A DNA stretch of 44,426 nt from a virus (taxonomy: Duplodnaviria; Caudoviricetes), in the IMG/VR virus record IMGVR_UViG_3300022862_000008, positions 1 to 44,426 of that record. One strand, written 5' to 3'. The notes below the pieces were generated by a model. That model saw only the letters and a program-made list of their open reading frames with translations, made no database searches and was not told where the DNA came from. The position numbers were made by a program, and so were the translations under genes. Below, one piece after another: positions 40-43,644 of this stretch. Within the stretch, counting starts at the first letter, position 1; each line of letters starts with the position of its first letter.

Positions 40-126
40 GCCGAAGTGGCGGAATCGGTAGACGCAGCGGACTCAAAATCCGCCGCCCTTAAAAGCGTGT
101 GGGTTCGAGTCCCACCTTCGGCACCA
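40..126 (+). tRNA. tRNA-Leu(CAA), prophage integration site
   Basis: 87-nt cloverleaf GCCGAAG...CTTCGGC-ACCA; anticodon arm GCGGA-CTCAAAA-TCCGC with CAA at 74-76; long variable arm; GGTTCGAGTCC T-arm. Confidence 0.97.
69..126 (+). repeat. att core, left copy (58 bp, 3' part of tRNA-Leu)
   Basis: Identical to 43587-43644. Confidence 0.97.
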
Positions 127-5771: not shown

Positions 5772-6212
5772 TCAGGCTGCTGGCGTAACCGCGTCCTTGC
5801 TTTCTACCTTTTCCAGCGCGCTCCATACGCCGGACAACTCCTGCAGCTGTCGGTACTTCCTCTCCGACGACCGCAGGTCCTTGATGGCGTCGGCCAGAAG
5901 CTGAGCCCGCAATGCCTCATTGCTCAGCACGTCGGCGAGTGCGCGGTAGCCGCCCGCGCCGTGGCGATCACTGCCCAGCGACACGAATGCCCTCATCGGC
6001 GCCGAGTCCTTCGCCTCCACGGTGACGAACACCCGCAGCAGCTGCCGCGCCTGCCAGATGCGGTGCTGTTGCGCCGCCTCCGTGTCGTCCCATTCGAACC
6101 AGCTGTGCATCGCCGAATTGGGATTCGCCGCCTTCGCGACCACATCGGCCGGTCGGATGATGCCCTCGGCCTTCAGCCGTTCCAGTTCCTCTCGAATCGC
6201 GTCATTGTTCAT
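5772..6212 (-). CDS. Partner protein coupled to the RAMP-like gene (146 aa)
   Basis: ATGA overlap with the upstream gene; P.DVV..A.NP.S.MH..FEWDD..AA..HRI.QARQLLR segment. Confidence 0.8.
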   Translation of the reverse strand: MNNDAIREELERLKAEGIIRPADVVAKAANPNSAMHSWFEWDDTEAAQQHRIWQARQLLRVFVTVEAKDSAPMRAFVSLGSDRHGAGGYRALADVLSNEALRAQLLADAIKDLRSSERKYRQLQELSGVWSALEKVESKDAVTPAA

Positions 6213-6850
6213 GCCGCCATGTCCTGTTCGGTGGCGAGGCGGAAAGTGCCCCACCCCATGCCGGCACTCGCCTTGCTGTCCGGCCTACCCTCCCCAACCC
6301 CCACTTGCGCGCCCACGCGGGCAATCAAGTTGGACACATCGGTCAGGCTGAACTGATCGGCGTCGTAGCGGATGCGGACATCGGCCGCCCACTCGTGCCA
6401 CATCGGCCGCGTGCGCAGGTCCACCACCCCGGTGGCGTTCCGCACGTGCAGGTCCACCCGCTTGTACGGCCCGGCGATCAGCTTCACCAGCGGCGTACCG
6501 TCGTCAACGTCGTAGCCGTCGGCCTCCACGAACACGGAGAGCTTGCCGATCGTCATCTTGAAGCCGACCAACCTACAGGCCGAGATCATGCCAGCGCGGA
6601 AGGCGCCAGCCGGGATGCCCGGCCAGCCTTCCTGGCTGTAGTGCACCGCGGCGTCGCACAGCTCGTCAAAGTTCTTCGCCGTCCGCGTCTTTTTCGACTT
6701 CGCCTGCGATCCCGCCTCCTGCGTCTCGCGGATCTGCTGCTTGGCCTTGGCCGAGAACTTGGCCTGCACGAACGGAGCAGTACCGATAATGCGGAAGGTG
6801 GCCACCTGGATGTTCGGGGCCGGAATCTGGATGCTTTTCGTACTCATCAT
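6209..6850 (-). CDS. Stand-alone RAMP/Cas7-like protein (213 aa)
   Basis: GAGGAG RBS; N-terminal FRIIGTAPF strand, GIPAGAFRAGM (cf. RAMP IPGSSLKG), C-terminal glycine loop GVGEGRPDSKASAGMGWGTF. Confidence 0.7.
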   Translation of the reverse strand: MMSTKSIQIPAPNIQVATFRIIGTAPFVQAKFSAKAKQQIRETQEAGSQAKSKKTRTAKNFDELCDAAVHYSQEGWPGIPAGAFRAGMISACRLVGFKMTIGKLSVFVEADGYDVDDGTPLVKLIAGPYKRVDLHVRNATGVVDLRTRPMWHEWAADVRIRYDADQFSLTDVSNLIARVGAQVGVGEGRPDSKASAGMGWGTFRLATEQDMAA

Positions 6851-6863
6851 TGTCTCCTCAGGG

Positions 6864-7154
6864 TCAAGCCATTGCGGACAGGTACTGGCGCGTTGCGGCT
6901 TTCCGGCTGTCGTCCAACAGGCGGTACAGCTGCAGCAGTTCGCGCTCGCCGGGGTCGGCCGGCTCCGGGGGCGGCAGCGCGGCATTGAGTTCCACAGCCA
7001 GCGCCTGCAGCTGCTGATGGCTGAGCCCGCTCGTTCGTTCTTTCTGCTGTTTCAACTCAGACGTGCGTTCCGCGAGGCGTCGCGCCAGCGTTTCAAAGCG
7101 GGCTGCACTCGGGGAGAAGTTGACAGGCAGGGGCGTTACTGTAGGCTTTGCCAT
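6864..7154 (-). CDS. Hypothetical protein (96 aa)
   Basis: GAGG RBS; C-terminal ERELLQLYRLLDDSRK helix as seen at the end of phage regulators. Confidence 0.65.
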   Translation of the reverse strand: MAKPTVTPLPVNFSPSAARFETLARRLAERTSELKQQKERTSGLSHQQLQALAVELNAALPPPEPADPGERELLQLYRLLDDSRKAATRQYLSAMA

Positions 7155-7264
7155 GATTTCCTCGCTGGAAGTCGTTTTCTGAGACGCCTGGGCTGCCACC
7201 CGGGCGTTTCGCTTTTTACGGGGTCACCCGTATGTAAATCACTCCGATCAGAGGGATTTGCGCC

Positions 7265-7948
7265 CTACGCAGCCTCCTGCAGGACCAGCTGCAGAACGGA
7301 CTCGTGGTAGGTGTGGACCGATCCGAACCGAGGGTCGCGGACGTCGCCGATGGCCAGACCCATATCCCGAGAGAGTGATGCGCAGCGCCGCCCCAGGATG
7401 GACGCGACCTTCAGATCGACGGTCGCACCGACTAGGTTGGCGTAGCCCATCACCGTGAAGTGCTTGTTCTCGGGCTGGGTACGTGCGCCGATCACCGCCA
7501 CTTCCTCCTGCAGCCGGGCCACTTCCGTCGCCTGACGGGCCTGCTCTTGCTCCAGTGCGTCCTGGCGGACCAGCACCTCTACAAGCGCGGCGATACGCGG
7601 GTCCTTGATCGCAGGCAGGCTGGGTTCGCCGGCTCTCCGCTCACAGTCGATGAAGTACTGCCTTGCCTGCCGCCCTTTCTCGTTGCGTTCGACCATCGAC
7701 AGCTCTTTTGCCATGTCGATCGTCAGCTCATATTCCTTGGCCGGGCGCCCCCCTGAGAGGTTTTTCCCAGAATCGGTAAAAACCTCAAAATCCTCGCCAC
7801 GCTTGAACTTGTACTGCTTGATCCGGTCGTTGATCCACGTCCCGAACACCTTGCCGATCTCCAGGAACGCGTGAAGGTCGCGCCCGCTCACGGACTGAAC
7901 CACCTGCCCGCCGATGCGGGCTTCTTGAATCGGGATCAGTGCGTTCAT
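7265..7948 (-). CDS. ant: Antirepressor, AntA/AntB family
   Basis: VSGRDLHAFLE...F.TWI.DRI..Y.F....DF and GGRP.KEY.LT.DMAKELSMVERNEKGRQARQYFI motifs. Confidence 0.9.
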   Translation of the reverse strand: MNALIPIQEARIGGQVVQSVSGRDLHAFLEIGKVFGTWINDRIKQYKFKRGEDFEVFTDSGKNLSGGRPAKEYELTIDMAKELSMVERNEKGRQARQYFIDCERRAGEPSLPAIKDPRIAALVEVLVRQDALEQEQARQATEVARLQEEVAVIGARTQPENKHFTVMGYANLVGATVDLKVASILGRRCASLSRDMGLAIGDVRDPRFGSVHTYHESVLQLVLQEAA

Positions 7949-8109
7949 GCGGCTGCCCCCTTCTCTTCCTCTGCCCGCTGTTTGGCCAGGCGATGCTCGA
8001 TCTCACCGTTCAGGGAGCGATAGTTGGCGGCGGCCTGCTTCTTCAACCACCCGCGCAGTTCAGCGGAGAGGCGAAGCGGGAATGGCGAAAGCTGATGTCT
8101 CTCGGTCAT
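7945..8109 (-). CDS. arc: Arc-family ribbon-helix-helix repressor (54 aa; not in the ORF track)
   Basis: Hand translation MTERHQLSPFPLRLSAELRGWLKKQAAANYRSLNGEIEHRL...; ATGA-coupled to ant. Confidence 0.88.
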   Translation of the reverse strand: MTERHQLSPFPLRLSAELRGWLKKQAAANYRSLNGEIEHRLAKQRAEEEKGAAA

Positions 8110-8124
8110 ATCCTGATCCTTCTC

Positions 8125-8194
8125 GGCTTCACAATGAAGCCAGTGACTTCACTATGAAGCCGAATGATTCGACTGTCAACATCAAAATGAAGCC
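8125..8194. promoter_or_regulatory. arc/mnt divergent control region: three 17-bp operators and Pant
   Basis: GGCTTCA-caa-TGAAGCC (8125), GACTTCA-cta-TGAAGCC (8145), AACATCA-aaa-TGAAGCC (8178); minus-strand TTGACA(8179-8174)-N17-CATAGT(8156-8151). Confidence 0.8.
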
Positions 8195-8209
8195 GATAGA
8201 CTCTCGTCG

Positions 8210-8725
8210 ATGAAGAAGAGCACCCAAGACGATTTCATTCGGACAGCTTTGCGTGTCCCCCCCGCTCTGCACGCCAGAATCCATGAAGAAGCTCGTTCCT
8301 CGGGCCGAACTTTCAACGCTCAGCTGATCCACATGCTCTATGGCTATCTGGAACAGCAGGATGAGGCCGAGGCGATCGACCGTGAGGGCGCGAGGATGGA
8401 GCAGCAGGTTGGTGTTGGATACGGATTGACCGATCCCTTGGACCGCGCGGCGGTGCTCAAATCGCTGCTCTTCCAGGAGCGAAGCCTATTGCGCAGGCGA
8501 GTTGCAGACCTTGGTGGGCGCGATGCGGTCTTGAAACTGGACGAGGCTGAGATAAAAGCCCGTGTGACTGGTGAGAAGATCGTTGCTACCGACGCGGAAA
8601 GGCGCTCCCACATGTCACGGGCCCTGGAGACCTACCCGTTGACCACCCTGCTGACCGATGACGAGCTGGGCAAGCTGGCAGAGCGGGTGATCACCATGCA
8701 GAAGGCGATGGGCCAGGCCAAGTAA
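8210..8725 (+). CDS. Mnt-like Arc-family repressor with C-terminal extension
   Basis: RTALRVPPALHARIHEEARSSGRTFNAQLIHML RHH domain; divergent from arc-ant. Confidence 0.85.
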   Translation: MKKSTQDDFIRTALRVPPALHARIHEEARSSGRTFNAQLIHMLYGYLEQQDEAEAIDREGARMEQQVGVGYGLTDPLDRAAVLKSLLFQERSLLRRRVADLGGRDAVLKLDEAEIKARVTGEKIVATDAERRSHMSRALETYPLTTLLTDDELGKLAERVITMQKAMGQAK

Positions 8726-11654: not shown

Positions 11655-12907
11655 TATTCGGGCACCCACTGACCATTACGGAGGACCAGCACCTGGCCGG
11701 TTGTGGGATTGCGAGCGCGCTGCGGCTGCGGCTGCGGAGCAGTACCCCCAAACGCTTCAGCTGCAGTCGGCTGATAGCCGGTCGACTGCAGGAAATTGCG
11801 CGTCTTGTTGGCCTGCACCTCAACCGGATCAAGGTATGTGGGCATCTGCAACGTCGACGTCTCGCGATCCGCGTTGCTGATCGGGCCGCTCGGATTCTCG
11901 TAGGCGGCAAGGCCAGCGCCCGCGCCTTGAGAGTAGGACAGGACGTCGGAGTTCAGCACGTCGCCGAGAGTCTGGCCGCCCGGGAGATTGCGCGCGAATC
12001 GGGCAATACCGCCCTGGAAGCCGCGGCCTCCCTTTCTCTCCATCAAGGCGGCGATTTCATCTGCGCTCAGCTTGCGCAATTCGGTCTCCGGCGTGCCCGT
12101 CAGCGCAGCTGCATATGACAGCAGGTTTCGCTGCACGCTCTGCGCACCGGTCTTCTGCCGCGGATTGAGGTCACTGAGCATGCCGCCGTCCGCCGCCGGG
12201 CCTTGGCCTGCGCTCCCGGGTCCTGAAGCGCTGCCCGCGCTCCCGCTGGGATTCCAGCGGCCATCACGCTGCAACGCAAACTGCGCCTGAGCGAGCCCCA
12301 AGCGCCCGCGGGTGGCTTGGGCGGTTGCATTGGAGCTGTTCGCCGATGCATAGCTGGCGGCCGCCGAGGCGTTGCGTTGGCCGATGGTCGACTGGCCCAC
12401 TGGCGTCACGTTGAGGTCCTGTCCGGATTGGCCATATGGGTTGTAGGCGACGCCATCAGCGATCTTGGTCATCTCCAGCGGCCCTTTCGCGAGGCCGAGG
12501 CTGTAGGCGCCGGCGGCGGGCAGATTGCCCTGTAGGGCCTCCGCTACGATGCTGCCGCGGTTCCCGTACTCCTGCCCCGAAAGCCGGGCTGTCGCGTATT
12601 CGTTCGGGTTGAGCCCGGAGCCAGCGAAAGCGCCGGCGGCGCGCGCAGACGCAGGGTCCCAGCCGGCAGCGATCAGCTCGTCGGACAGTCCGGTCTGCTT
12701 TTCTCTCGCCCGCTCCGCCTCCATCGCCTTTTCGCGGCTGAAGCGCGCGGTCTGCACGAGCTGATCCAGCTGGGCGGCCCTCGCCATCCCTCGGTTGTAC
12801 GAGTCCTCGCGACCAGCGCCGCCCAACCCAGCCAGCGCTTGGCCTACCGATGCCCAGCCCTGCGGGGGCTGGCTGTTCGCCTGGAGAATGCTCATCAGGT
12901 CTGCCAT
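11654..12907 (-). CDS. Internal virion/ejection protein
   Basis: Ala/Gly/Gln-rich; C-terminal ARNPTTGQVLVLRNGQWV motif. Confidence 0.7.
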   Translation of the reverse strand: MADLMSILQANSQPPQGWASVGQALAGLGGAGREDSYNRGMARAAQLDQLVQTARFSREKAMEAERAREKQTGLSDELIAAGWDPASARAAGAFAGSGLNPNEYATARLSGQEYGNRGSIVAEALQGNLPAAGAYSLGLAKGPLEMTKIADGVAYNPYGQSGQDLNVTPVGQSTIGQRNASAAASYASANSSNATAQATRGRLGLAQAQFALQRDGRWNPSGSAGSASGPGSAGQGPAADGGMLSDLNPRQKTGAQSVQRNLLSYAAALTGTPETELRKLSADEIAALMERKGGRGFQGGIARFARNLPGGQTLGDVLNSDVLSYSQGAGAGLAAYENPSGPISNADRETSTLQMPTYLDPVEVQANKTRNFLQSTGYQPTAAEAFGGTAPQPQPQRARNPTTGQVLVLRNGQWVPE

Positions 12908-21619: not shown

Positions 21620-21937
21620 TCAGACCGTGCTGCGGTTGTTGAGGCTGCGCAGGTCCAGAAGCATCGAGCGGACCAGCTGCGTCTGGCCGACAATGGCCTG
21701 AGCGAGCGGCGAGCGCATCGGCTCCGGTTCGCCGGGCGAAGCACAGCCTTCGGGACCGTCCGGGAGCAGGACCGCGCGGAAGCACTGGCGTGCACGGATC
21801 AGCTCTTCGGAGAGCTCGGTGAGGAGATTGGCATGCTGCGCCAGGACCTCATCCACCTGCGATACGAATTGATCCGGCGCACGCGGGTCACAAGCGGTAA
21901 TGGCAGTGGCGTCGTACTGACGCAGTCGATCGTTCAT
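21620..21937 (-). CDS. Hypothetical moron-like protein (105 aa)
   Basis: GGAG RBS; has its own promoter motif and terminator. Confidence 0.6.
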   Translation of the reverse strand: MNDRLRQYDATAITACDPRAPDQFVSQVDEVLAQHANLLTELSEELIRARQCFRAVLLPDGPEGCASPGEPEPMRSPLAQAIVGQTQLVRSMLLDLRSLNNRSTV

Positions 21938-31992: not shown

Positions 31993-32199
31993 TCAGGCGG
32001 CCTTCTTGCGGCGGGATGCAGCGGCGGGCTTGAACAGGTCGGGCCGCTTCTGAGCCGCCCGCCAGCACCACGCATCCGGCAGTTGGTCGTGGTCCCCACG
32101 GCCGGTCATCGACTGGCGCGGGAGGCCGAGGAAGCGGGCGAACTCGGCGTTCGTTTCGATGCCGAGGGCGGTCTTTGCTTGGGCCAAGGTCGGATTCAT
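31993..32199 (-). CDS. cro: Cro-like protein
   Basis: 68-aa HTH (NAEFARFLGLPRQSM) with RPDLF ending; divergent from the repressor. Confidence 0.8.
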   Translation of the reverse strand: MNPTLAQAKTALGIETNAEFARFLGLPRQSMTGRGDHDQLPDAWCWRAAQKRPDLFKPAAASRRKKAA

Positions 32200-32205
32200 G
32201 GCGAC

Positions 32206-32271
32206 AGTAAATCATCGGTTACCGGTGGTAGTCAACCATGATTTCCACATTTCCGTCAATCATTCGTTACA
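32206..32271. promoter_or_regulatory. OR: three 18-bp operators at 24-bp spacing with pR
   Basis: AGTAAATCATCGGTTACC (32206), AGTCAACCATGATTTCCA (32230), CGTCAATCATTCGTTACA (32254); minus-strand TTGACT-N18-TTTACT. Confidence 0.8.
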
Positions 32272-32765
32272 TGAGCATTGGCGCCCGACTAGAGGAGCTG
32301 CGGAAGGCCTCGCAGCTGACCCAGCAACAGATGGCTGACATCGTCGGGACGACGAAGCAGTACGTCGGTCGCCTGGAAAAAGGCCTGAACCAAAATCCAA
32401 ACGGGGTGTTTCTGACCGGATGGGCACGCCACTTTGCCGTAAGCCCAAGGTGGCTGTCGTCCGGCGAAGGCCCCCGATACGCGACCGAGCGCACAGCGTC
32501 TCAGTCAGCGCGACCCGACTTCGGCAAGCTGGCCGCGTCGGTTCTACTTCTTCGTCACTACCTGGACTTCACCGGCGAACCGGCCGAGTGGATCAGCGAC
32601 GAAGTTCTATTGGAAACGGCGTTCGAGGTGGTCGAGGAGTTCGGCGCAGAGGTCCGCGCTGACAATGTGTTCGACCTGACAAAGGTTCTGGCAAAGAAAA
32701 TCAGGGGTGGAGCGGATGCACAAGGACAGCAGGTTCGAGGAACTCGCGCAGCGGTTGGCACTTAG
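32271..32765 (+). CDS. cI: CI-like XRE repressor without a recognisable S24 peptidase domain
   Basis: IGARLEELRKASQLTQQQMADIVG...VSPRWLSSGEG XRE HTH. Confidence 0.87.
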   Translation: MSIGARLEELRKASQLTQQQMADIVGTTKQYVGRLEKGLNQNPNGVFLTGWARHFAVSPRWLSSGEGPRYATERTASQSARPDFGKLAASVLLLRHYLDFTGEPAEWISDEVLLETAFEVVEEFGAEVRADNVFDLTKVLAKKIRGGADAQGQQVRGTRAAVGT

Positions 32766-33075
32766 GACTGCACAGCTTCGCGGGGAGGCGCAGGAGGCTC
32801 GCCCTGCCCTGCGCCTGGTGGTCGAACAAGCTCCGCAAGGCATGGACTTCATCCTGCGCGAGTCACATTGCCGGATGATCCGCCACTTCCGTCGCCGCTG
32901 GGGCTCTTCAATGCAGATGCTCATCGATCAGGCTTGTTTCGGCTACACCGGCATTGAGGCTCTTCCCGATGACGATCTCATCCAGCTCCATCGCGACCTA
33001 GAGCGCGCCCAAGACTGTATGCGCGATGGTGTTTCCTTCGAAGATGCCGGACTTCTTCGCTCACGATACGGGTGA
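32716..33075 (+). CDS. Hypothetical protein in the repressor operon
   Basis: 119-aa ORF overlapping the cI end; GGAG RBS. Confidence 0.7.
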   Translation: MHKDSRFEELAQRLALRTAQLRGEAQEARPALRLVVEQAPQGMDFILRESHCRMIRHFRRRWGSSMQMLIDQACFGYTGIEALPDDDLIQLHRDLERAQDCMRDGVSFEDAGLLRSRYG

Positions 33076-33078
33076 ACA

Positions 33079-33540
33079 ATGGCTCTGAATGCGCTTCTAT
33101 TCGCGGTGGCACTCGCCAGCGGCCCTGCCGTCACTGATGAGGATAGAGCCACAATTGAGCAAGCCACTCGCACGGCGGACACCTTCGCCTACTGCGCTGG
33201 AGTGTGGGATTTCTTTGCCGCAGCTGAAGCAGCTGGTGATCGCCCCGCTTCCGCAGAGCAGTTCCGCAACATGGGGAATGGAGCGCAAACTGCCGCTCTC
33301 TGGACGCATGCCAAGGCCCACCTGGCCTCTGGCGGGAAGCCAGCCCGTTATGGCGCATGGCTGCCTCTCGTCACGCCGAAGCGCCAAGCGGCGAACCTGC
33401 AACTGCACGCCGCGCTGGAACACGGCGACGTCGAACGCGCCAAGCGTGAAGGCGAGACATGCCGAGGAATGCTGGAGTCGCAGCAGATGGCGATTGATTA
33501 CTTGCGCCAGGACCAAGTAGACCTCGAAACAGGGCCGTAA
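33079..33540 (+). CDS. Exported protein in the repressor operon
   Basis: Signal-peptide-like MALNALLFAVALA; helical body with two Cys. Confidence 0.7.
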   Translation: MALNALLFAVALASGPAVTDEDRATIEQATRTADTFAYCAGVWDFFAAAEAAGDRPASAEQFRNMGNGAQTAALWTHAKAHLASGGKPARYGAWLPLVTPKRQAANLQLHAALEHGDVERAKREGETCRGMLESQQMAIDYLRQDQVDLETGP

Positions 33541-33566
33541 TCTGAACGAAACTGCGTTCGTTCAGA
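33541..33566. terminator. Perfect 10-bp hairpin between the repressor operon and pL
   Basis: TCTGAACGAA-actgcg-TTCGTTCAGA; no clear U-tract. Confidence 0.5.
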
Positions 33567-33583: not shown

Positions 33584-33625
33584 AGTAACTTTTAATTGAC
33601 TGGCACAAGTAACCGATGGTTTACT
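33584..33625 (+). promoter_or_regulatory. OL: two 18-bp operators with pL
   Basis: AGTAACTTTTAATTGACT (33584), AGTAACCGATGGTTTACT (33608); TTGACT-N18-TTTACT, same geometry as pR. Confidence 0.8.
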
Positions 33626-33676
33626 AGCTCCATCGCCCCACGACACCCTCACAACGAGGCGGGGCTGGAGAACGAG

Positions 33677-34081
33677 ATGAGCCAGCAGTCGCAGCAGCGC
33701 TTCACCCAGACCCATGGCGGCGTGCTGACCGTCATCGATTCGACCACCGGCCTCGAGTGGATCGCCAAGCCGCTGACTGGCGAGTTCGAACACCAGAAAG
33801 CCATCGACGCTTGCGCCGCGCTGGACTTCGCCGGCCACAAGGATTGGCGCCTGCCGACCCGCGCCGAGCTGCTCACGCTGGTGGACATCACCCGCCACGA
33901 GCCGGCGATCGATACCGCCGCGTTCCCTGACTTCCCGAAGAGCGGCTGGTTCTGGACATCCGACCTGTGCGCCTGGTCTTCGGCGTCCGCGTGGTTCGTC
34001 TATTTCAGCTACGGCTGCGTCTACTGCAGCCCCCGCGACTACGGCGGGTTCGCGTTGGCCGTGCGTCGTGCCGGTCAGTAA
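33677..34081 (+). CDS. DGR target 1, DUF1566 (C-type lectin-like fold) protein, 134 aa
   Basis: VIDSTTGLEW, AGHKDWRLPT.AEL and WFWTS motifs; carries VR1. Confidence 0.92.
   Translation: MSQQSQQRFTQTHGGVLTVIDSTTGLEWIAKPLTGEFEHQKAIDACAALDFAGHKDWRLPTRAELLTLVDITRHEPAIDTAAFPDFPKSGWFWTSDLCAWSSASAWFVYFSYGCVYCSPRDYGGFALAVRRAGQ
33970..34075 (+). repeat. DGR variable region VR1
   Basis: 106-bp ungapped match to TR 39221-39326; 16 mismatches, all at TR adenines. Confidence 0.97.
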
Positions 34082-34910: not shown

Positions 34911-35155
34911 CCGCTGCCTTCCTCTGCGCCCTGGTCGCCTCTTTCTGCGCCGCCGTGGTGCTGCGCGCCCTGATCACCAATGCCGACAGTTTCATTCTGA
35001 TCGGCGGTATCGGCGCCCTGTTCTTCGCCTACCGCTGCTGGGCCGAGGTGCGCCAGGCGTGGCCGGCCTTCACCCGCCACTTGGCTCACCGGCGCGCCAT
35101 GCGCCGCGCCGCCCCGCTGGTCCGCATCAATCTGCCCAAGGAAGACGTGCAATGA
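34898..35155 (+). CDS. Small membrane protein
   Basis: AAGGAG RBS; two TM helices and a basic tail. Confidence 0.7.
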   Translation: MRHLTAAFLCALVASFCAAVVLRALITNADSFILIGGIGALFFAYRCWAEVRQAWPAFTRHLAHRRAMRRAAPLVRINLPKEDVQ

Positions 35156-35964
35156 ATGACCTGACCAACCCGCAGGCCGCGATGGCGCAGCAGCCGCGCC
35201 AGCAGTTCGACCTCAGCCCGCAGACGTTCGAGCAGGCCCTGACGTTCGCCGACTACCTCGCCGACAGCGACCTGGTGCCGAAGGACTTCAAGGGTAAGCC
35301 CGCCAATTGCCTGATTGCGATGCAGTGGGGTGCAGAGCTGGGCCTGAAGCCGCTGCAGGCGCTCCAGAACCTCGCGATCATCAACGGACGCCCCGCACTG
35401 TGGGGTGATGCGGTGATCGCGTTGGTCCGCAGCTCGCCGCTGTGCGAGTACATCTCCGAGGCTGACGACGGCCACACCGCTGTCTGCCGGGTGAAGCGCC
35501 GCAGCGAAGCCGAGGAGGTCCGCACCTTCAGCATGGACGACGCCAAGGTGGCCGGCCTGCTCGGTAAAGCTGGGCCTTGGACGCAGTACCCGAAGCGCAT
35601 GCGCCAGATGCGCGCCCGGGCCTTTGCCCTGCGCGACGTGTTCCCGGACGTGCTGCGCGGCATGCCGATCGCTGAAGAGGTGATGGACATCCCGGCAGGA
35701 TCGGACCAGCCGCGCACGACGGCTGCGGTCACCGCCGACAAGGCGCTGCCGCTGTACTCGGAAGCGGACTTCGCAGCGAACCTGCCGAAGTGGTGGGACA
35801 TCATCGCCAGCGGCAAGAAGTCCGCCGAGGACCTGATCGCAACTCTGCAGACCAAGGCCCGATTCACGGCCGAGCAGCTGAAGGAGATCCGCAACCCGCC
35901 AACCGACGTTGACGAGGGCGATGTGGAGAACGACGACAACACCCATACCGGCGTGGAGAACTGA
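35152..35964 (+). CDS. RecT-like single-strand annealing protein
   Basis: LVPKDFKGKPANC...GAELGL.P.QALQN...INGRP and W.QYPKRM...RA.AFALRD.FPDVL.G motifs. Confidence 0.85.
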   Translation: MNDLTNPQAAMAQQPRQQFDLSPQTFEQALTFADYLADSDLVPKDFKGKPANCLIAMQWGAELGLKPLQALQNLAIINGRPALWGDAVIALVRSSPLCEYISEADDGHTAVCRVKRRSEAEEVRTFSMDDAKVAGLLGKAGPWTQYPKRMRQMRARAFALRDVFPDVLRGMPIAEEVMDIPAGSDQPRTTAAVTADKALPLYSEADFAANLPKWWDIIASGKKSAEDLIATLQTKARFTAEQLKEIRNPPTDVDEGDVENDDNTHTGVEN

Positions 35965-35966
35965 GC

Positions 35967-37655
35967 ATGAAGACCGTGAACCTGATCCAGGGGACGCCGG
36001 AATGGCATGCCCACCGCGCCAACCATTTCAACGCCAGCGATGCGCCGGCAATGATGGGCTGCAGCCCCTACAAGACCCGCAGCCAGCTGGTGCGCGAGCT
36101 TGCCGCTGGCACGTCCCAGGAGCATGACGCTGCGACGCTGCGGCGCTTCGCCGACGGGCACCGCTTCGAGGAACTGGCCCGGCCGCTGGCCGAGAGCATC
36201 ATCGGCGAGGAACTGTATCCCTGCGTCGGCGTCGACGGAAAGTTCTCGGCGAGCTTCGACGGCCTGACGCTGCTTGAGGACGTAGCTTTCGAGCACAAGT
36301 CGCTCAATGATGACCTGCGCGCGGCGATGCACGATGGCAACCACGACCTGCCGCTGCACTATCAGGTGCAGATGGAACACCAGGCCATGGTCAGCGGCGC
36401 CGAGCGCGTGCTGTTCATGGCTTCGAAGTGGAACGGCGACGACCTGGTCGAAGAGCACCACTGCTGGTACACGCCGAACCCCGAGCTGCGAGCGCGCATT
36501 GTCGCCGGCTGGGCCCAGCTGGAGGCCGACGTGGCTGCCTACGAGCCGGAGGCGCCTGCAGCGCCGGTCGCCGCCGGCCGCGCGCCGAATCAGATGCCGG
36601 CGCTCCGCATCGAAGTAACCGGCATGGTCACGGCATCGAACCTCGCCGAGTGGAAGGAGCGCGCAATTGCAGTGTTCCAGGGCATCAGTCAGGACCTGGT
36701 CACCGATCAGGACTTCGCCGACGCCGAGAAGACCGTGAAGTGGTGCGGTGACATCGAAAGCCAGCTGGCCGGTGCCAAGCAGCATGCCCTGAGCCAGACC
36801 GAGAGCATCGACCTGCTGTTCCGCACCATCGACGACATCAGCGAGCAGGCCCGGACCACCCGCCTGGCGCTGGACAAGCTGGTCACGAAGCGGAAGGAGG
36901 AGCGCCGCACCGAGATCGGCAACGCTGCGCGCCGCGCCGTGCAGGACCACGTACGGGCCATCAACGAGACGCTGGGCGAGCACGCGCTGCAGATGCCGGC
37001 GACGCTGATCCCTGACCTGCAGGCGGCCATGAAGGGGAAGCGCTCCCTCACCAGCATGCAGGACGCGGTCGATACGGTGGCGACGAACGCCAAGATCAGC
37101 GCCAGCCAGACCGCCGAGCGCCTCCGGGCAAACATGGCGATCTTGGCCGAGCACGCGGAGCACGCCACCCTCTTCGCCGACCGCGTGCAGCTGTGCGCCG
37201 ATAAGGCGCCGGATGATCTGCGGAACCTGGTCGCGGCGCGCGTCTCCGCGCACCAGCAGGCCGAGCAGAAGCGACTGGACGACGAGCGCGAAAAGATCCG
37301 CGCCGAAGAGGCGGAGAAGGCGCGCAAGGCAGCGGAGGTTCAGCAGGCCGTCGCTCAGCAGCCCGCAGCGCCGGCAACTGTGGCCGAGCCCGCCCAGCAA
37401 CCCTCAGCGCCCACGGCCGCGCCGGCAGCGGCTGCCGCGCCGCGAGCGGTTCCCAAACTCAAGCTGGGCGACATCAATGCTCGCATCGCGCCGCTGTCGA
37501 TCTCAGCTGACGGCCTCGCCCAACTTGGCTTTGCGCCGGTCAGCACCGAGCGCGGCGCGAAGCTCTATGACGGTGACCAGTTGCCGGCGATCTGCGAGCG
37601 GCTGATCAGCGTCCTGCGCACCGCAGCCGACACCAGCCTTCCCCTCGCTGCCTGA
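35967..37655 (+). CDS. YqaJ/lambda-exonuclease family protein with long coiled-coil extension
   Basis: QGTPEWH..R...ASDA, SASFDG, FEHK and HYQVQMEHQ motifs. Confidence 0.9.
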   Translation: MKTVNLIQGTPEWHAHRANHFNASDAPAMMGCSPYKTRSQLVRELAAGTSQEHDAATLRRFADGHRFEELARPLAESIIGEELYPCVGVDGKFSASFDGLTLLEDVAFEHKSLNDDLRAAMHDGNHDLPLHYQVQMEHQAMVSGAERVLFMASKWNGDDLVEEHHCWYTPNPELRARIVAGWAQLEADVAAYEPEAPAAPVAAGRAPNQMPALRIEVTGMVTASNLAEWKERAIAVFQGISQDLVTDQDFADAEKTVKWCGDIESQLAGAKQHALSQTESIDLLFRTIDDISEQARTTRLALDKLVTKRKEERRTEIGNAARRAVQDHVRAINETLGEHALQMPATLIPDLQAAMKGKRSLTSMQDAVDTVATNAKISASQTAERLRANMAILAEHAEHATLFADRVQLCADKAPDDLRNLVAARVSAHQQAEQKRLDDEREKIRAEEAEKARKAAEVQQAVAQQPAAPATVAEPAQQPSAPTAAPAAAAAPRAVPKLKLGDINARIAPLSISADGLAQLGFAPVSTERGAKLYDGDQLPAICERLISVLRTAADTSLPLAA

Positions 37656-38270: not shown

Positions 38271-38696
38271 ATGAGCAACCCGAAGTTCATCAAGATCGGC
38301 GCCGATGGCGCGCAGCTTCCCGACGACGCCACCGGCCATGTCGCCGTCTTCCTGCCCGACCACGGCCTCACCTTCAGCGCCACCAGCGTCGTGGACAGCG
38401 ACGTGCCGCATGAGGAATGCGAGGCCGCGTGCAAGGCGCTGACGCTGGCTGGCCACAGCGACTGGGACCTGCCGACCATCGAAGAGCTGCAGCTGCTCAT
38501 CGACCGAAGCCGCTACAGCCCGGCTATCAACACCGACTTCTTCCAGGACATCCAGAACGACTGGTACTGGACGAATACCCCGGCCGCCTGGTCTTCGGCG
38601 TCCGCGTGGTTCGTCGATTTCGGCTACGGCAGCGTCAGCGGCTACCGCCGCTGCGCCGACGGGTTCGCGTTGGCCGTGCGTCGTGCCGGTCAGTGA
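38271..38696 (+). CDS. DGR target 2, DUF1566 protein, 141 aa
   Basis: AGHSDWDLPTIEEL, PAIN...F and WYWT motifs; carries VR2. Confidence 0.93.
   Translation: MSNPKFIKIGADGAQLPDDATGHVAVFLPDHGLTFSATSVVDSDVPHEECEAACKALTLAGHSDWDLPTIEELQLLIDRSRYSPAINTDFFQDIQNDWYWTNTPAAWSSASAWFVDFGYGSVSGYRRCADGFALAVRRAGQ
38581..38690 (+). repeat. DGR variable region VR2
   Basis: 110-bp ungapped match to TR 39217-39326; 17 mismatches, all at TR adenines. Confidence 0.97.
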
Positions 38697-38721: not shown

Positions 38722-39162
38722 ATGAATTCCCGCTTCCAGCTCCCGCCCATCCTCAAAGCGTGCGAACGGCTCCTGCTCGAAATTGAGCAGGCCGTCCGGC
38801 AGTTCCCGCGCTACCACCGCTACATGATCGGGTCGGACCTGCGCCGCCAGATGATGTCGGTGAACAGCACCGCGAACCGTGCGTGGCGTGACCGCGCCAG
38901 CCAGCCGAAGTGGGTCGGGCAGCTGGTGTGGGAAATCGATGACCTCAAGCAGCATCTGCAGGCCGCCAAACTGTTCCAGGCGTTCCGCAGCTTCCGGCAG
39001 TTCGAGATGCTGATCCGCCTGGCTGAAGAGCTCGGCGCGCAGGCCGGCGGTTGGCGCCGTCGGCTGGCAAACCCCCAAGCCCAGAATGCGCAAGCCAATG
39101 GCGTCGCGCAGCGTGGCCAGAAACTGAGTACCCGTGTCGCCTCTGAGGGGGCCAATTCATGA
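38722..39162 (+). CDS. avd: DGR accessory variability determinant (four-helix bundle)
   Basis: FPRYHRY.IG.DLR and G.Q.GGW motifs; located between VR and TR. Confidence 0.9.
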   Translation: MNSRFQLPPILKACERLLLEIEQAVRQFPRYHRYMIGSDLRRQMMSVNSTANRAWRDRASQPKWVGQLVWEIDDLKQHLQAAKLFQAFRSFRQFEMLIRLAEELGAQAGGWRRRLANPQAQNAQANGVAQRGQKLSTRVASEGANS

Positions 39163-40520
39163 CGAAGCTTCGCTACCAGCACGGATGCGCTGACGGGTCG
39201 AAAGTACATGGGGAGGCGGCCGCCTGGTCTTCGGCGTCCGCGTGGAACGTCAATTTCAACAACGGCAACGTCAACAACAACCACCGCAACAACAACGGGT
39301 TCGCGTTGGCCGTGCGTCGTGCCGGTGAGTTTCAGGGGGAAGTCTCGCTGCAGGATTTGTACCGGGCATGGCGGCGCGCGCGCCGCCAGAAGGTCCCCAG
39401 TTTCAACCAGCTCCGTTTCGACGGGCGTTGGTCCGATGGGCTGCTGCGGCTCGAACGTGAGCTGGTCGGCGGCACCTGGTCGCCGCGCCCGTCCACCTGC
39501 TTTATCGCCACCCGGCCCAAGGCGCGCGAGATCCACGCGCCGGACTTCGCCGACCGCGTGGTGCACCACTGGCTGGTCCCGCAGCTGGAGGCACTGTGGG
39601 AGCCGACCTTCATCCATGACAGCTACGCCAACCGTAAGGGCCGCGGCAGCCACGCCGCCGTCCGCAGGGCTCAGGAATTCAGCCGGCAAGTGCACTCGGG
39701 CCAGGGTGGCGGCTACTACCTGCAGCTGGACGTGGCCAACTTCTTCAACAGCATCCATCGACCGACGCTGTGGGGGATGCTCCGCAAGCGCATGCAGCGC
39801 CGCGGGCTTTCCGCTACGGCGCAGAAGGCCACGCATGCCCTGATCCGCCGGTCGCCGCTGCATGCCGGCGTCCACTACCGCGCCACCGACGCCGAGTTGG
39901 CGCAGGTCCCACCCCACAAGCGGCTGGTCAACGCTCCGGCCGGGCGCGGCTTGCCGATCGGCAACCTGTCCAGCCAGTTCTTCGCAAACGTCTATCTGGA
40001 CGCCCTCGACCAGTTCGTGAAGCACGAGCTCAAGGCAGCGCGCTACCTGCGCTACGTCGATGACTTCGTGCTATTCCACCACGACCGCGAGCAGCTGGCG
40101 GCCTGGCGCGACCAGATCGAGGCCTTCCTGGCCGACCGCCTGGGGCTGCGCCTCAAGGCTGAGCAGCACCTGCGCCGGTTGACCGATGGCATCGACTTCC
40201 TAGGCTACGTGATCTACCCCACGCATACCCTCGCCCGTCAGCGGGTAGTCGGCCACGTACGGCAGGCTCTCGCTGAATGGGAAGGCGTGCACGTCGAGGG
40301 CAACAAGCTGCACGGGCGCCCGTCGGCATTCCGTGACCTTCGCACGCGGCTTGCCAGCTACCAGGGCCACCTGCGGCACGCGAACAGCCACCACCTACTG
40401 GCCTCGCTGCACCACCGCTTCCCGTGGCTGGACTGCGCTGCCACGCCGCGGCGCTTCAGCCATCGAGCCGAGCGCCAGACCATTTCCATTGATTTCAGGA
40501 AGGAGCCGACGAATGGCTGA
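39159..40520 (+). CDS. DGR reverse transcriptase (TR lies in frame within its 5' end)
   Basis: K.REI.AP.F.DRVVHH, LDVANFF.SI, GLPIGNLSSQFFANVYL, RYVDDF and GIDFLGY motifs; DGR-type LxSQ. Confidence 0.96.
   Translation: MTKLRYQHGCADGSKVHGEAAAWSSASAWNVNFNNGNVNNNHRNNNGFALAVRRAGEFQGEVSLQDLYRAWRRARRQKVPSFNQLRFDGRWSDGLLRLERELVGGTWSPRPSTCFIATRPKAREIHAPDFADRVVHHWLVPQLEALWEPTFIHDSYANRKGRGSHAAVRRAQEFSRQVHSGQGGGYYLQLDVANFFNSIHRPTLWGMLRKRMQRRGLSATAQKATHALIRRSPLHAGVHYRATDAELAQVPPHKRLVNAPAGRGLPIGNLSSQFFANVYLDALDQFVKHELKAARYLRYVDDFVLFHHDREQLAAWRDQIEAFLADRLGLRLKAEQHLRRLTDGIDFLGYVIYPTHTLARQRVVGHVRQALAEWEGVHVEGNKLHGRPSAFRDLRTRLASYQGHLRHANSHHLLASLHHRFPWLDCAATPRRFSHRAERQTISIDFRKEPTNG
39217..39326 (+). repeat. 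DGR template region (TR)
   Basis: 11 AAY codons plus one CAC, 23 adenines; matches both VRs. Confidence 0.97.
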
Positions 40521-41097
40521 TATCGAACAGCAGGCCCGCGCCCCCGCCAGCGTGCTGGATCCGTGCTGCGGCAGCCGGATGATGTGGTTCGACCCGGCTG
40601 ATCAGCGCGGCCTGTTCGGCGACCAGCGGCACGAGACCATTACGGTGATCGACCGCACGCACCGCGCTGATGGAACCCGCGTCCTGTCCATCCATCCGGA
40701 TTGCCTCATGGACTTCCGGGCGCTGCCTTTCGCAGACGAGTCGTTCCCGCTGGTCGTGTTCGATCCGCCCCACCTGGTGCGCGCCGGCAAGGAAAGCTGG
40801 CTGGCCGCCAAGTACGGCAAGCTCGGTGCCAACTGGCGCGACGACCTTCGCGCTGGCTTTTCCGAGTGCTTCCGTGTGCTCCGCCCCGAGGGTGTGCTGG
40901 TCTTCAAATGGTCGGAGGTGCAGGTGGCCACTCGTGACGTGCTGGCCCTCACCGACCGCCGTCCGTTGTTCGGGCATCCCTCGGGAAAGCGGGCAGGCAC
41001 CCACTGGATCACCTTCATGAAGGAATCAGTGTCCACCACCCTGGCTACCGTCAAGCCGCCGCGTAACCGGCGCACCAGGCTGCGGGAGGATGTGTAA
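40513..41097 (+). CDS. SAM-dependent methyltransferase (probable DNA amino-MTase)
   Basis: VLDPCCGSRMMWF motif I, VVFDPPH motif IV-like, ECFRVLRPEG. Confidence 0.85.
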   Translation: MADIEQQARAPASVLDPCCGSRMMWFDPADQRGLFGDQRHETITVIDRTHRADGTRVLSIHPDCLMDFRALPFADESFPLVVFDPPHLVRAGKESWLAAKYGKLGANWRDDLRAGFSECFRVLRPEGVLVFKWSEVQVATRDVLALTDRRPLFGHPSGKRAGTHWITFMKESVSTTLATVKPPRNRRTRLREDV

Positions 41098-42215: not shown

Positions 42216-42440
42216 ATGGTCATGCCCACGAATGAGCTTTGCCTGTCCCGAAAGGAGATGCGCGAGCTGTGCGGAACCCCGCTGAAGGACCGCCAGTTCG
42301 AATTCTTGCGGTCCAACGGCATCCGGCACTACAAAGGGCTGGACGACCGGCCGCGTGTGCTGCGCTCCACGGTCGAGGGCGCCGGCGATGAGGTTGCCGC
42401 CAAGGCAATCGCCACCTGGAAACCGAACAAGGCAGCGTGA
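42216..42440 (+). CDS. Excisionase-like protein (DUF4224-like)
   Basis: LSRKEMREL.G.....RQ..FL..NGI.......RPRV pattern; directly upstream of the integrase. Confidence 0.8.
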   Translation: MVMPTNELCLSRKEMRELCGTPLKDRQFEFLRSNGIRHYKGLDDRPRVLRSTVEGAGDEVAAKAIATWKPNKAA

Positions 42441-43468
42441 TGGGAAGAAAGCCGACCAAGCCGGGGGCCATCCCCCGGTTCCGCGCCCGCAAGCAGAAAT
42501 CGGGCGTGGTGCACTACTACTACGATCTGGGCGGAAAGCCGCGCCGGGAGATGCCGCTGGGCGCCGACTACGGCCTGGCCATCAAGCAGTGGGCTGAGAT
42601 CGAGGGTGACCGCGATGCGCCGGCCGCCGCGGTGCTGACGCTGCGGGTGGTGTGCGACGCCTATCGCCGGGAGGTGATGATCACGAAGGCACCCCGAACC
42701 CAGCAGGACAACGCGAAAGAGATGGCGAACCTGCTGGAGTTCTTCGACGACCCGCCCGGCCCCCTGGACGCGATCCAGCCGGTGACCGTCAGGCAGTACC
42801 TGACGTGGCGGACGAAGGACGGCAAGGGACTGGTGCGCGCGAACCGTGAGAAGGCCCTGCTGTCGCATATCTGGAACTTCGCGCGCGACAAGGGCTACAC
42901 GGCGCTGCCGAACCCCTGCGCGGGCATCAAGGGCTTCAAGGAGACCGGCCGGGACGCCTACATCGAGGAGGAACAGTACCGGGCCATTCGGGCCAGTGCC
43001 GATATCGTGGTTCAAGGCGCGATGGACCTGGCCTACCTCACTGGCCAGCGGCCAGCCGACGTACTGGGGCTCACCGAGATGGATGTCCGCGATGGCGCGA
43101 TCAACATCCGACAGGCGAAGACAAAGGCAAAGCTCCGCATCGCGGTCGAGGGCGAGCTGGCGGCGCTGCTGGACAACCTCCGCGCGCGCAAGGCCGGGCA
43201 CAAGGTCCACAGCACTCGCCTGATCGTGAGCGAACGTGGGCGGCCGGTAACCGTAGCCATGATGTCCAGGCGCTGGGCCAAGGCGTGCGCGGCGGCGGGC
43301 GTGACAGGTTTGCAGTTCCGAGACCTGCGCGCCAAGGCGGCCACCGACAAGGCAGATTCGGCTGGTGACATCCGCCAGGCGCAGCGCCAGCTGGGCCATA
43401 CGAACATCACGATGACCGAGCAGTACATCCGCCAACGACGCGGGCACAAGTCGAGCCCAACGCGGTAG
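42440..43468 (+). CDS. int: Tyrosine integrase
   Basis: TGQRPADVL, FRDLRAKAAT and LGH....MT..Y catalytic motifs; adjacent to att. Confidence 0.95.
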   Translation: MGRKPTKPGAIPRFRARKQKSGVVHYYYDLGGKPRREMPLGADYGLAIKQWAEIEGDRDAPAAAVLTLRVVCDAYRREVMITKAPRTQQDNAKEMANLLEFFDDPPGPLDAIQPVTVRQYLTWRTKDGKGLVRANREKALLSHIWNFARDKGYTALPNPCAGIKGFKETGRDAYIEEEQYRAIRASADIVVQGAMDLAYLTGQRPADVLGLTEMDVRDGAINIRQAKTKAKLRIAVEGELAALLDNLRARKAGHKVHSTRLIVSERGRPVTVAMMSRRWAKACAAAGVTGLQFRDLRAKAATDKADSAGDIRQAQRQLGHTNITMTEQYIRQRRGHKSSPTR

Positions 43469-43586: not shown

Positions 43587-43644
43587 GGACTCAAAATCCG
43601 CCGCCCTTAAAAGCGTGTGGGTTCGAGTCCCACCTTCGGCACCA
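43587..43644 (+). repeat. att core, right copy (displaced 3' part of tRNA-Leu)
   Basis: Exact 58-bp copy of 69-126. Confidence 0.97.

Follow-up and report, generated by a model that had tools for sequence, protein, structure and literature searches.

A two-target DGR of a temperate phage diversifies small lectin-fold proteins of the early module that are probably cytoplasmic

Phage DGRs are nearly always read as receptor-switching devices, which raises the question of what such an element can be for when its targets lie in the early gene module, as they do in the widespread clade considered here. The window, by which we mean the whole stretch of 44,426 nucleotides analysed (IMG/VR record IMGVR_UViG_3300022862_000008), contains an intact DGR with a template region (TR), an accessory protein (Avd), a reverse transcriptase (RT) and two VRs. 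A first-pass annotation made from the sequence had proposed that its targets are intracellular binders made early, for anti-defence or host takeover. We find that small, early, cytoplasmic and non-virion are all well supported descriptions of these proteins, whereas the defence or takeover role is only plausible.

The window corresponds to a whole prophage, and the phage is temperate. A repeat search showed it to be bounded by a 58-bp direct repeat, the copies of which are attL (69-126, plus strand), formed by the 3' part of a tRNA-Leu(CAA) gene, and attR, of the same sequence (43587-43644, plus strand). The late genes occupy the minus strand and have a podoviral look (SU10 adaptor, internal virion proteins), with no match to a tape measure protein among them. 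Every called gene from cI (starting at 32238) to the integrase (ending at 43468) is on the plus strand. This run includes a CI-like HTH repressor (32238-32765), a RecT-like annealing protein (35152-35964) and a RecE/YqaJ-like exonuclease (35967-37655), and it ends with an excisionase and a tyrosine integrase (42222-43468). Gene starts were assigned with a purpose-made codon-model caller and compared by eye with the annotation of Burkholderia cenocepacia phage Magia. The closest RT in named genomes, 94% identical, is that of Stenotrophomonas rhizophila, and because most close RTs are found in Stenotrophomonas and other Xanthomonadales, a Stenotrophomonas host is likely. Outside the DGR, an Arc-like gene, an AntA antirepressor and a divergent gene of 171 aa that matches HicB/Arc-like proteins weakly lie between the tail and lysis genes (6209-8725) and, judged by gene content, may form a second immunity region resembling P22 immI, and an M14 zinc carboxypeptidase-like gene (841-2067; Pfam E 8.8e-14) closes the late operon.

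The RT (39159-40520, plus strand) is an open frame of 453 aa with an intact YVDD motif (phrog_1423, E 1.8e-97; RVT_1, E 6.4e-16), and is preceded by avd (38722-39162, plus strand; phrog_3206, E 1.5e-18; bAvd, E 4.4e-7, which is below the Pfam cut-off). The TR (39221-39326, plus strand) carries 23 adenines in 12 codons (11 AAC and one CAC) and sits in frame within the 5' end of the RT open reading frame. The N-terminus of this frame (39159-39326) is translated TR, its ATG overlaps the avd stop codon, and the homology of close relatives' RTs extends over the TR-encoded N-terminus too. A DNA methyltransferase gene (40513-41097) adjoins the 3' end of the RT gene, and methyltransferases recur at this place in relatives. 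VR1 (33970-34075, plus strand) forms the C-terminus of target 1, has 16 of the 23 TR adenines changed and is followed by the IMH-type sequence GGTCAGTAATTG; VR2 (38585-38690, plus strand) forms the C-terminus of target 2, has 17 of the 23 changed and is followed by GGTCAGTGATTTG. Over the 106 nt, both match the TR at 83 of 83 non-adenine positions, with changes at adenines only. The next best TR-like site on either strand of the entire window matches at only 46 of 84 non-adenine positions, and we therefore agree with the earlier observation that no tail gene contains a VR.

Comparison with relatives indicates that this machinery has been at work. The sequence that follows the VRs is conserved, unlike the one that follows the TRs: the IMH consensus is GGTCAGTaATTgG past 80 VR hits, as against GGTGAGTTTCAGG (IMH*) past 43 TRs. 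No stable hairpin was found 3' of the VRs (-1.4 to -6 kcal/mol). The 12 variable codons afford each target a theoretical repertoire of 4^23 DNA variants and about 3.5e13 protein variants. Among VRs from the 43 loci that share the window's TR, 75 of 81 hits are distinct (a count in which both VRs of the window and one or more altered TRs are included), and this diversity across relatives records past mutagenic activity. Gly, Ser, Tyr and Asp dominate the VR residues, with a bias that is specific to position. The DNA sequencing runs were available as assembled contigs only, in which within-sample variants are invisible, and there the contigs break at the VR cores, for which the TR/VR repeats alone are a sufficient reason. 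The TR of one relative (L035, 10641-10746) is VR-like at its 3' end, where four adenines are changed; this suggests either homing into the template or recombination with it.

Target 1 (33677-34081, plus strand, 134 aa) and target 2 (38271-38696, plus strand, 141 aa) are both stand-alone Lcl_C domains (PF07603, equivalent to DUF1566; E 2.5e-27 over residues 18-130 and E 1.1e-21, respectively), in agreement with their original description as single-domain DUF1566 proteins of 134-141 aa. They are 34% identical outside the VR. An AlphaFold (AF2) model of target 1 (pLDDT 92, from a 72-sequence alignment) predicts a CLec fold with the VR at its C-terminus, in which the variable residues map to the last strands and the loop joining them. 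Its best match is the C-terminal domain of Legionella Lcl (8q4e; Foldseek E 1.3e-5; Z 13.7, rmsd 4.3 over 117), and further C-type lectin matches are TvpA (Z 8.8) and Mtd (1yu0; Z 8.4). A single-sequence search of the PDB with target 1 gave no match, a profile search found Lcl and nothing else, and a search of the ESM Atlas returned only Lcl_C clusters, mostly viral. The target scaffolds appear to be under purifying selection, with dN/dS ranging from 0.06 to 0.23 in 3 target 1 pairs and from 0.09 to 0.46 in 30 target 2 pairs, all 33 pairs being same-length homologues that are more than 70% identical.

The position of these genes points to early expression. An unbiased repeat search returned a 38-nt inverted pair, one arm of which lies before cro (32198-32235) and the other before target 1 (33596-33633). 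Both arms have the form TTGACT-18-TTTACT around one palindrome, and more copies are found between cro and cI. These elements are putative pR/OR (32198-32275, minus strand, with operator-like palindromes) and pL/OL (33596-33633, plus strand), the latter being an inverted copy of the former placed about 45 nt 5' of target 1. A sigma-70 consensus scan of the window called neither promoter, because the -10 box reads TTTACT; a pattern search for pR and pL is circular, the pattern having been derived from those two sites, and it is the inverted repeat that provides unbiased support. Target 1 is the first open reading frame past the inverted copy of the cro-side element, and so its earlier placement as the first gene after pL/OL is borne out. 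The second target had been placed among recombination genes, which is accurate in that it belongs to the same-strand run ending in xis-int and lies two small genes downstream of recT/recE, but less so in that it is the cassette gene directly 5' of avd. On the other side of the immunity region, the gene in the cro position (31993-32199, minus strand, no family match) has its start codon 7 nt past the pR -10 box (32197-32235), suggesting a leaderless message. Two hairpins flank pL: a near-perfect one 5' of it (33541-33566), possibly a terminator, and a GC-rich one in the target 1 leader (33635-33665), possibly an antitermination site. Contigs from RNA libraries lie dispersed across early as well as late genes and may derive from DNA, and it is from position and sequence that we infer early expression of the targets.

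The layout is not peculiar to this phage. Using the window's RT as query we retrieved 80 viral loci, and together with the window and Magia these form our first set, which contains 169 targets in 79 loci, 120-245 aa long and all on the RT strand, with two targets in 58 loci, three in 16 and one in 5. For the 78 loci with both target and RT, immunity or replication clusters are found upstream in 55 and xis/int downstream in 55; both flanks are present in 38, either in 72 and neither in 6. Non-adjacent targets are the first gene past a gap of at least 100 nt in 16 cases out of 33, and are not in the other 17. For 18 loci selected because they contain a distal target of this kind, we sought inverted matches to the DNA upstream of it: the best one lies just before cI in 9 and beats the maximum of 20 shuffles in 6, operator sequences varying from phage to phage. 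The Magia RT is 38% identical to that of the window, and a second set obtained with it as query contains 181 targets in 75 of 80 loci, again all on the RT strand and 117-282 aa long (the 282-aa target possibly reflecting a start-call error); here 14 of 25 distal targets come first after a gap of at least 100 nt. The early layout therefore recurs in two RT clades that are 38% alike, although the sampled phages are related and do not represent independent draws. These counts exclude loci with more distant RTs (below about 50% identity), whose DGRs are of other types and have targets that are long or secreted.

Within this layout, target number (1-4) and combination vary freely among loci. We rejected an obligate two-chain binder, in the manner of VH/VL, because the three scaffold types occur in every combination and single-target loci exist. 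The third scaffold class, of about 180 aa (for example L006, 9108-9656, and L076, 1352-1897), has a 40-60-residue N-terminal extension without a Pfam match, strand-like in some members and helix-like in others, which might possibly be an oligomerisation module. In Magia (locus L081), gp46 (12163-12627), annotated as hypothetical, clusters with targets, and the corresponding genes of close relatives have VRs; it is likely to be a third target, unnamed in the announcement of that phage.

Several observations separate the targets from the virion. Whole virus records were examined for 50 of the 80 first-set loci (29 of these records at least 90% complete), and in them all 150 of 150 Lcl_C matches fall within the RT-centred loci. 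No TR-like site was found in the structural DNA (19-34 kb each) of 10 relatives, where the best sites match at 42-49 of 83-89 non-adenine positions. The window's capsid is common to only 2 of the 50 records. Targets that are 93-96% identical to those of the window occur in phages with P22-like heads and ejection proteins (L003 and L005, the latter with a tailspike), and targets 73-77% identical occur in siphoviruses with tape measures or a lambda-like J. Three of the siphoviruses with tape measures (L007, L056 and L057) carry a target-2 scaffold that is 76-77% identical; two further relatives (L017 and L055) have HK97-like heads, and Magia, with the same early target layout, is a myovirus. The targets are thus independent of virion type: with 73-96% identity maintained across unrelated podovirus and siphovirus virions they travel with the early module, and an adhesin on the virion would require every one of these particles to offer the same docking site.

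Signals for export are equally scarce. A hydropathy scan found a TM-like segment in none of the 169 and none of the 181 targets, a pattern scan found no lipobox in the first-set targets, and a hydrophobic N-terminus is present in 4 of 169 and 3 of 181 targets, compared with 59 of 120 longer homologues. In the window's own pair neither a lipobox nor a hydrophobic segment turned up in these scans, which fits the claim that neither has a signal peptide or a fibre anchor. The C-terminal (second) Cys of the lectin disulfide is retained in 204 of 228 domains of longer homologues but in 0 of 169 targets; this residue lies within the TR-copied sequence, so its absence represents one or few events. On its own, the missing disulfide leaves room for a virion role, since virion proteins fold in the cytoplasm too. 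Measured against BPP-1, which would call for an anchored tail receptor-binding target among the late genes, what we find instead is bare domains on the early strand; measured against Legionella LdtA, the VR-bearing DUF1566/Lcl_C domain is present, and the hydropathy and pattern scans gave no sign of an export signal or lipoprotein anchor. We consider it very probable that the targets are cytoplasmic, non-virion proteins, and they would accordingly be missing from purified particles. This part of the earlier proposal draws on the position behind pL, the lack of export signals, the loss of the disulfide, independence of virion type and a fusion to Acb4 in a relative.

That fusion is a target of 245 aa (L045, 1159-1896), in which PF13876 (E 1e-30) is joined in frame to Lcl_C. 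PF13876 is the family of the Acb4 anti-CBASS sponge (described in bioRxiv 2024.12.30.630793), and the best PDB match of the N-terminal part is an Acb4 structure (E 0.007). The VR of the fusion has 16 adenine changes and no others, and its neighbours are an exonuclease, RecT, a second target, Avd and RT in one run, then an integrase. It is the sole Acb4 in the 50 records, and the fusion is seen in 1 of the 169 targets. A second protein with the same two domains (P0122, 272 aa, present in 5 contigs) is known from the protein alone, making two PF13876-Lcl_C fusions among the 120 proteins listed. The lectin cores of the two are 48% identical and each is nearer to unfused targets, and the fusions therefore appear to be independent. 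As a sponge must act in the cytoplasm, they support a cytoplasmic location well. They lend moderate support, by analogy, to an anti-defence role: Acb4 is reported fused with Tad2 and Sequestin, and one Acb4 fusion led to a new anti-defence family (in the available text of bioRxiv 2025.07.12.664507). Acb4 is also found fused to PF02026, PF13936 and PF12167, however, and a fusion may for this reason mark only what is early and cytoplasmic.

Searches for further partners gave little. A second Pfam domain is absent from 46 of 47 longer first-set targets and from 10 further long targets, and no new fusion partner emerged from the longer-homologue, region and profile searches, the last against 1.84 billion representatives; since such searches are swamped by long multi-repeat Lcl_C proteins, the count of fusions is a floor. 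A viral scan with P0122 gave matches to the Acb4 part only, at 80 loci. Among the other sponges, Tad2 occurs in none of the 50 records and Sequestin in two, both times in the head gene region; known sponges thus show no enrichment in this group of phages, which speaks against the anti-defence reading. These two Sequestin-family genes (PF21825; G001:C1:19142-19318 and G003:C1:20200-20376) belong to relatives that share the window's capsid, and the window gene at the matching place (21620-21937) has no Pfam match.

In the mechanism that we propose, CI would repress pL, and the targets, Avd, TR and RT would therefore be silent in the lysogen and jointly switched on in lytic growth. The two small lectin-fold proteins would each have the 12 codons at their tip rewritten from a single template, and would be produced in the cytoplasm straight after infection or induction. 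Retrohoming into replicating genomes would yield progeny with differing target alleles, and in the next host the allele of the incoming genome would be expressed first and selected if it neutralised something there. With 2-4 paralogous scaffolds per phage, one template could supply several independent binders. A variable binder can be selected only if it is linked to its genome, and must therefore act either on the virion, which the evidence disfavours, or inside the infected cell. The obstacle that changes fastest there is the set of defences carried by the host and by its resident prophages, and for that reason we judge the case evenly balanced that the targets bind and block anti-phage proteins of the bacterium or of a resident prophage. 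The defence protein as binding partner is the least certain step of this scheme, and it weighs against it that the closest solved folds (Lcl, Bd2740, InvE and Mtd) are surface adhesins.

The same positional and cytoplasmic evidence would also suit proteins that bind housekeeping or regulatory host factors, such as RNA polymerase, proteases or division and stress regulators, for takeover, the choice between lysis and lysogeny or a wider intracellular host range. The pL operon of lambda offers a precedent, in that N, cIII and kil bind host machinery, and a neighbouring gene family has a weak match, below the cut-off, to the RNAP-binding SutA. Housekeeping proteins change slowly, however, which would make continual hypervariation harder to justify, and the Acb4 fusions point to immunity; we regard host machinery as an unlikely object of the diversification, albeit one to be kept in mind. 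A role in the lysogen, as sensors or exclusion factors that bind proteins of competing phages, would depend on read-through from the cI operon. This is possible given that cI and two genes (32716-33075 and 33079-33540) lie just upstream of target 1 on the same strand with no terminator called there, and there are proposals that bacteria use DGRs to diversify intracellular sensors (PMC10053308; bioRxiv 2023.09.22.558884, in the text available). Against it stand the pR-like, operator-bearing promoter directly 5' of target 1, the hairpin upstream at 33541-33566, and the lack of any conserved effector domain or partner gene beside the targets, all of which make lysogen protection improbable.

We think it very improbable that the targets are virion adhesins, small CLec proteins docked non-covalently on the tail tip or head in the manner of T4 gp38 and setting tropism like BPP-1 Mtd. 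It is true that Mtd (Z 8.4) and adhesins have the same CLec fold, that tail proteins make up most phage DGR targets by the account in PMC8144416, and that the Magia announcement suggests host range (PMC7883833, as far as its text is available). Yet near-identical scaffolds accompany unrelated podovirus, siphovirus and myovirus virions, the genes follow pL on the early strand and encode no anchor domain, one member has a cytoplasmic sponge as its fusion partner, and PC_00009, likely the same cluster, is classed as non-structural/unknown in the portion of Roux et al. that deals with it (PMC8144416). A mostly selfish or neutral cassette in an accessory hotspot of the early operon would explain the free variation in target number and combination (1-4), but would sit poorly with purifying selection on the scaffolds, the position-specific bias in VR residues and a layout kept across RTs that are 38% alike; lectins acting only after release at lysis would be unlinked from the genomes that encode them, so that their variants could hardly be selected. 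To these last two readings together we attach little weight.

If the blocking of defence proteins by these targets proves true, it would amount to an adaptive counter-immunity in which new inhibitors arise by programmed hypermutation and not by the collection of fixed genes. Rather more tentatively, one may picture temperate phages of Xanthomonadales and Burkholderiales as carrying an antibody-like, self-diversifying counter-immunity made up of 2-4 intracellular binders, sometimes fused to Acb4, a generalisation that we hold a little short of evenly balanced. Selected VR alleles would then be baits for the discovery of defence proteins, and the disulfide-free 15-kDa scaffold a natural library of intracellular binders. 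These ideas are directly testable, given a cultured phage with this layout (Magia) and a library of 12 codons.

The DGR clade itself is already known from Magia and Stenotrophomonas SKA14, both published, and what sets the present case apart is that a two-target DGR of a known clade is used otherwise than in the tropism model. The Magia announcement speaks of 'relatively short reading frames', notes two short targets and offers adaptation or host range as a guess, and its available text is silent on early placement and intracellular function (PMC7883833). The text available of Roux 2021 and Wu 2018 likewise holds no link between DUF1566 or PC_00009 targets and an early operon or counter-defence (PMC8144416; PMC5758913), although the latter notes that about half of the category 'd' DUF1566 targets, which include Legionella LdtA, are domain-only and that non-adjacent prophage targets are common (PMC5758913). 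In the parts available, a Lifelines gut-virome preprint reports no DGR aimed at known anti-defence proteins, the UHGV preprint, the Macadangdang preprint, the TaqVP paper and BMC Genomics 2024 give tail or surface readings or no comment, and Belalov 2023 treats DGRs as host immunity by way of hypothesis (PMC10053308). Early-operon placement, independence of virion type and Acb4 fusion were not found stated in the consulted parts of these non-subscription papers; supplements to the sponge preprints may name PF07603.

Among known systems, the Magia DGR (NC_070954; PMC7883833, available in part) is one of the closest, in that RT, Avd and short CLec targets are all shared with the window; its gp57 heads the leftward run past the immunity region, gp47 and gp46 precede avd, and xis-int close the run. 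The DGR of Stenotrophomonas sp. SKA14 may be likened to that of the window by published description, in the parts available, which share the host genus, CLec2/DUF1566 targets and Avd but say nothing of prophage position or function (PMC5758913; PMC6602519); it has one longer and several short targets, eight in tandem in an assembly doubted by Wu et al. (PMC5758913). By description too, the Lcl_C/DUF1566 VR domain is the one assigned to target cluster PC_00009 of DGR clade 3 (PMC8144416, available in part). Legionella LdtA is a surface lipoprotein, whereas targets of the window type lack a lipobox. The Acb4 family (PF13876), absent from the window, is the N-terminal partner of the variable domain in L045 and P0122, where the VR lies in the lectin domain and not in the sponge. 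With the DGR of BPP-1 (mtd-avd-TR-brt) the window has in common the order target-avd-TR-RT, an adenine-specific VR and a C-terminal CLec fold. Mtd has 12 variable residues, and so does the window target. Unlike BPP-1, however, the window has its TR inside the RT open reading frame and no strong stem-loop after the VR, and where BPP-1 diversifies a trimeric tail receptor-binding protein of 376 aa, the window diversifies two bare domains of 134-141 aa encoded in the early run.
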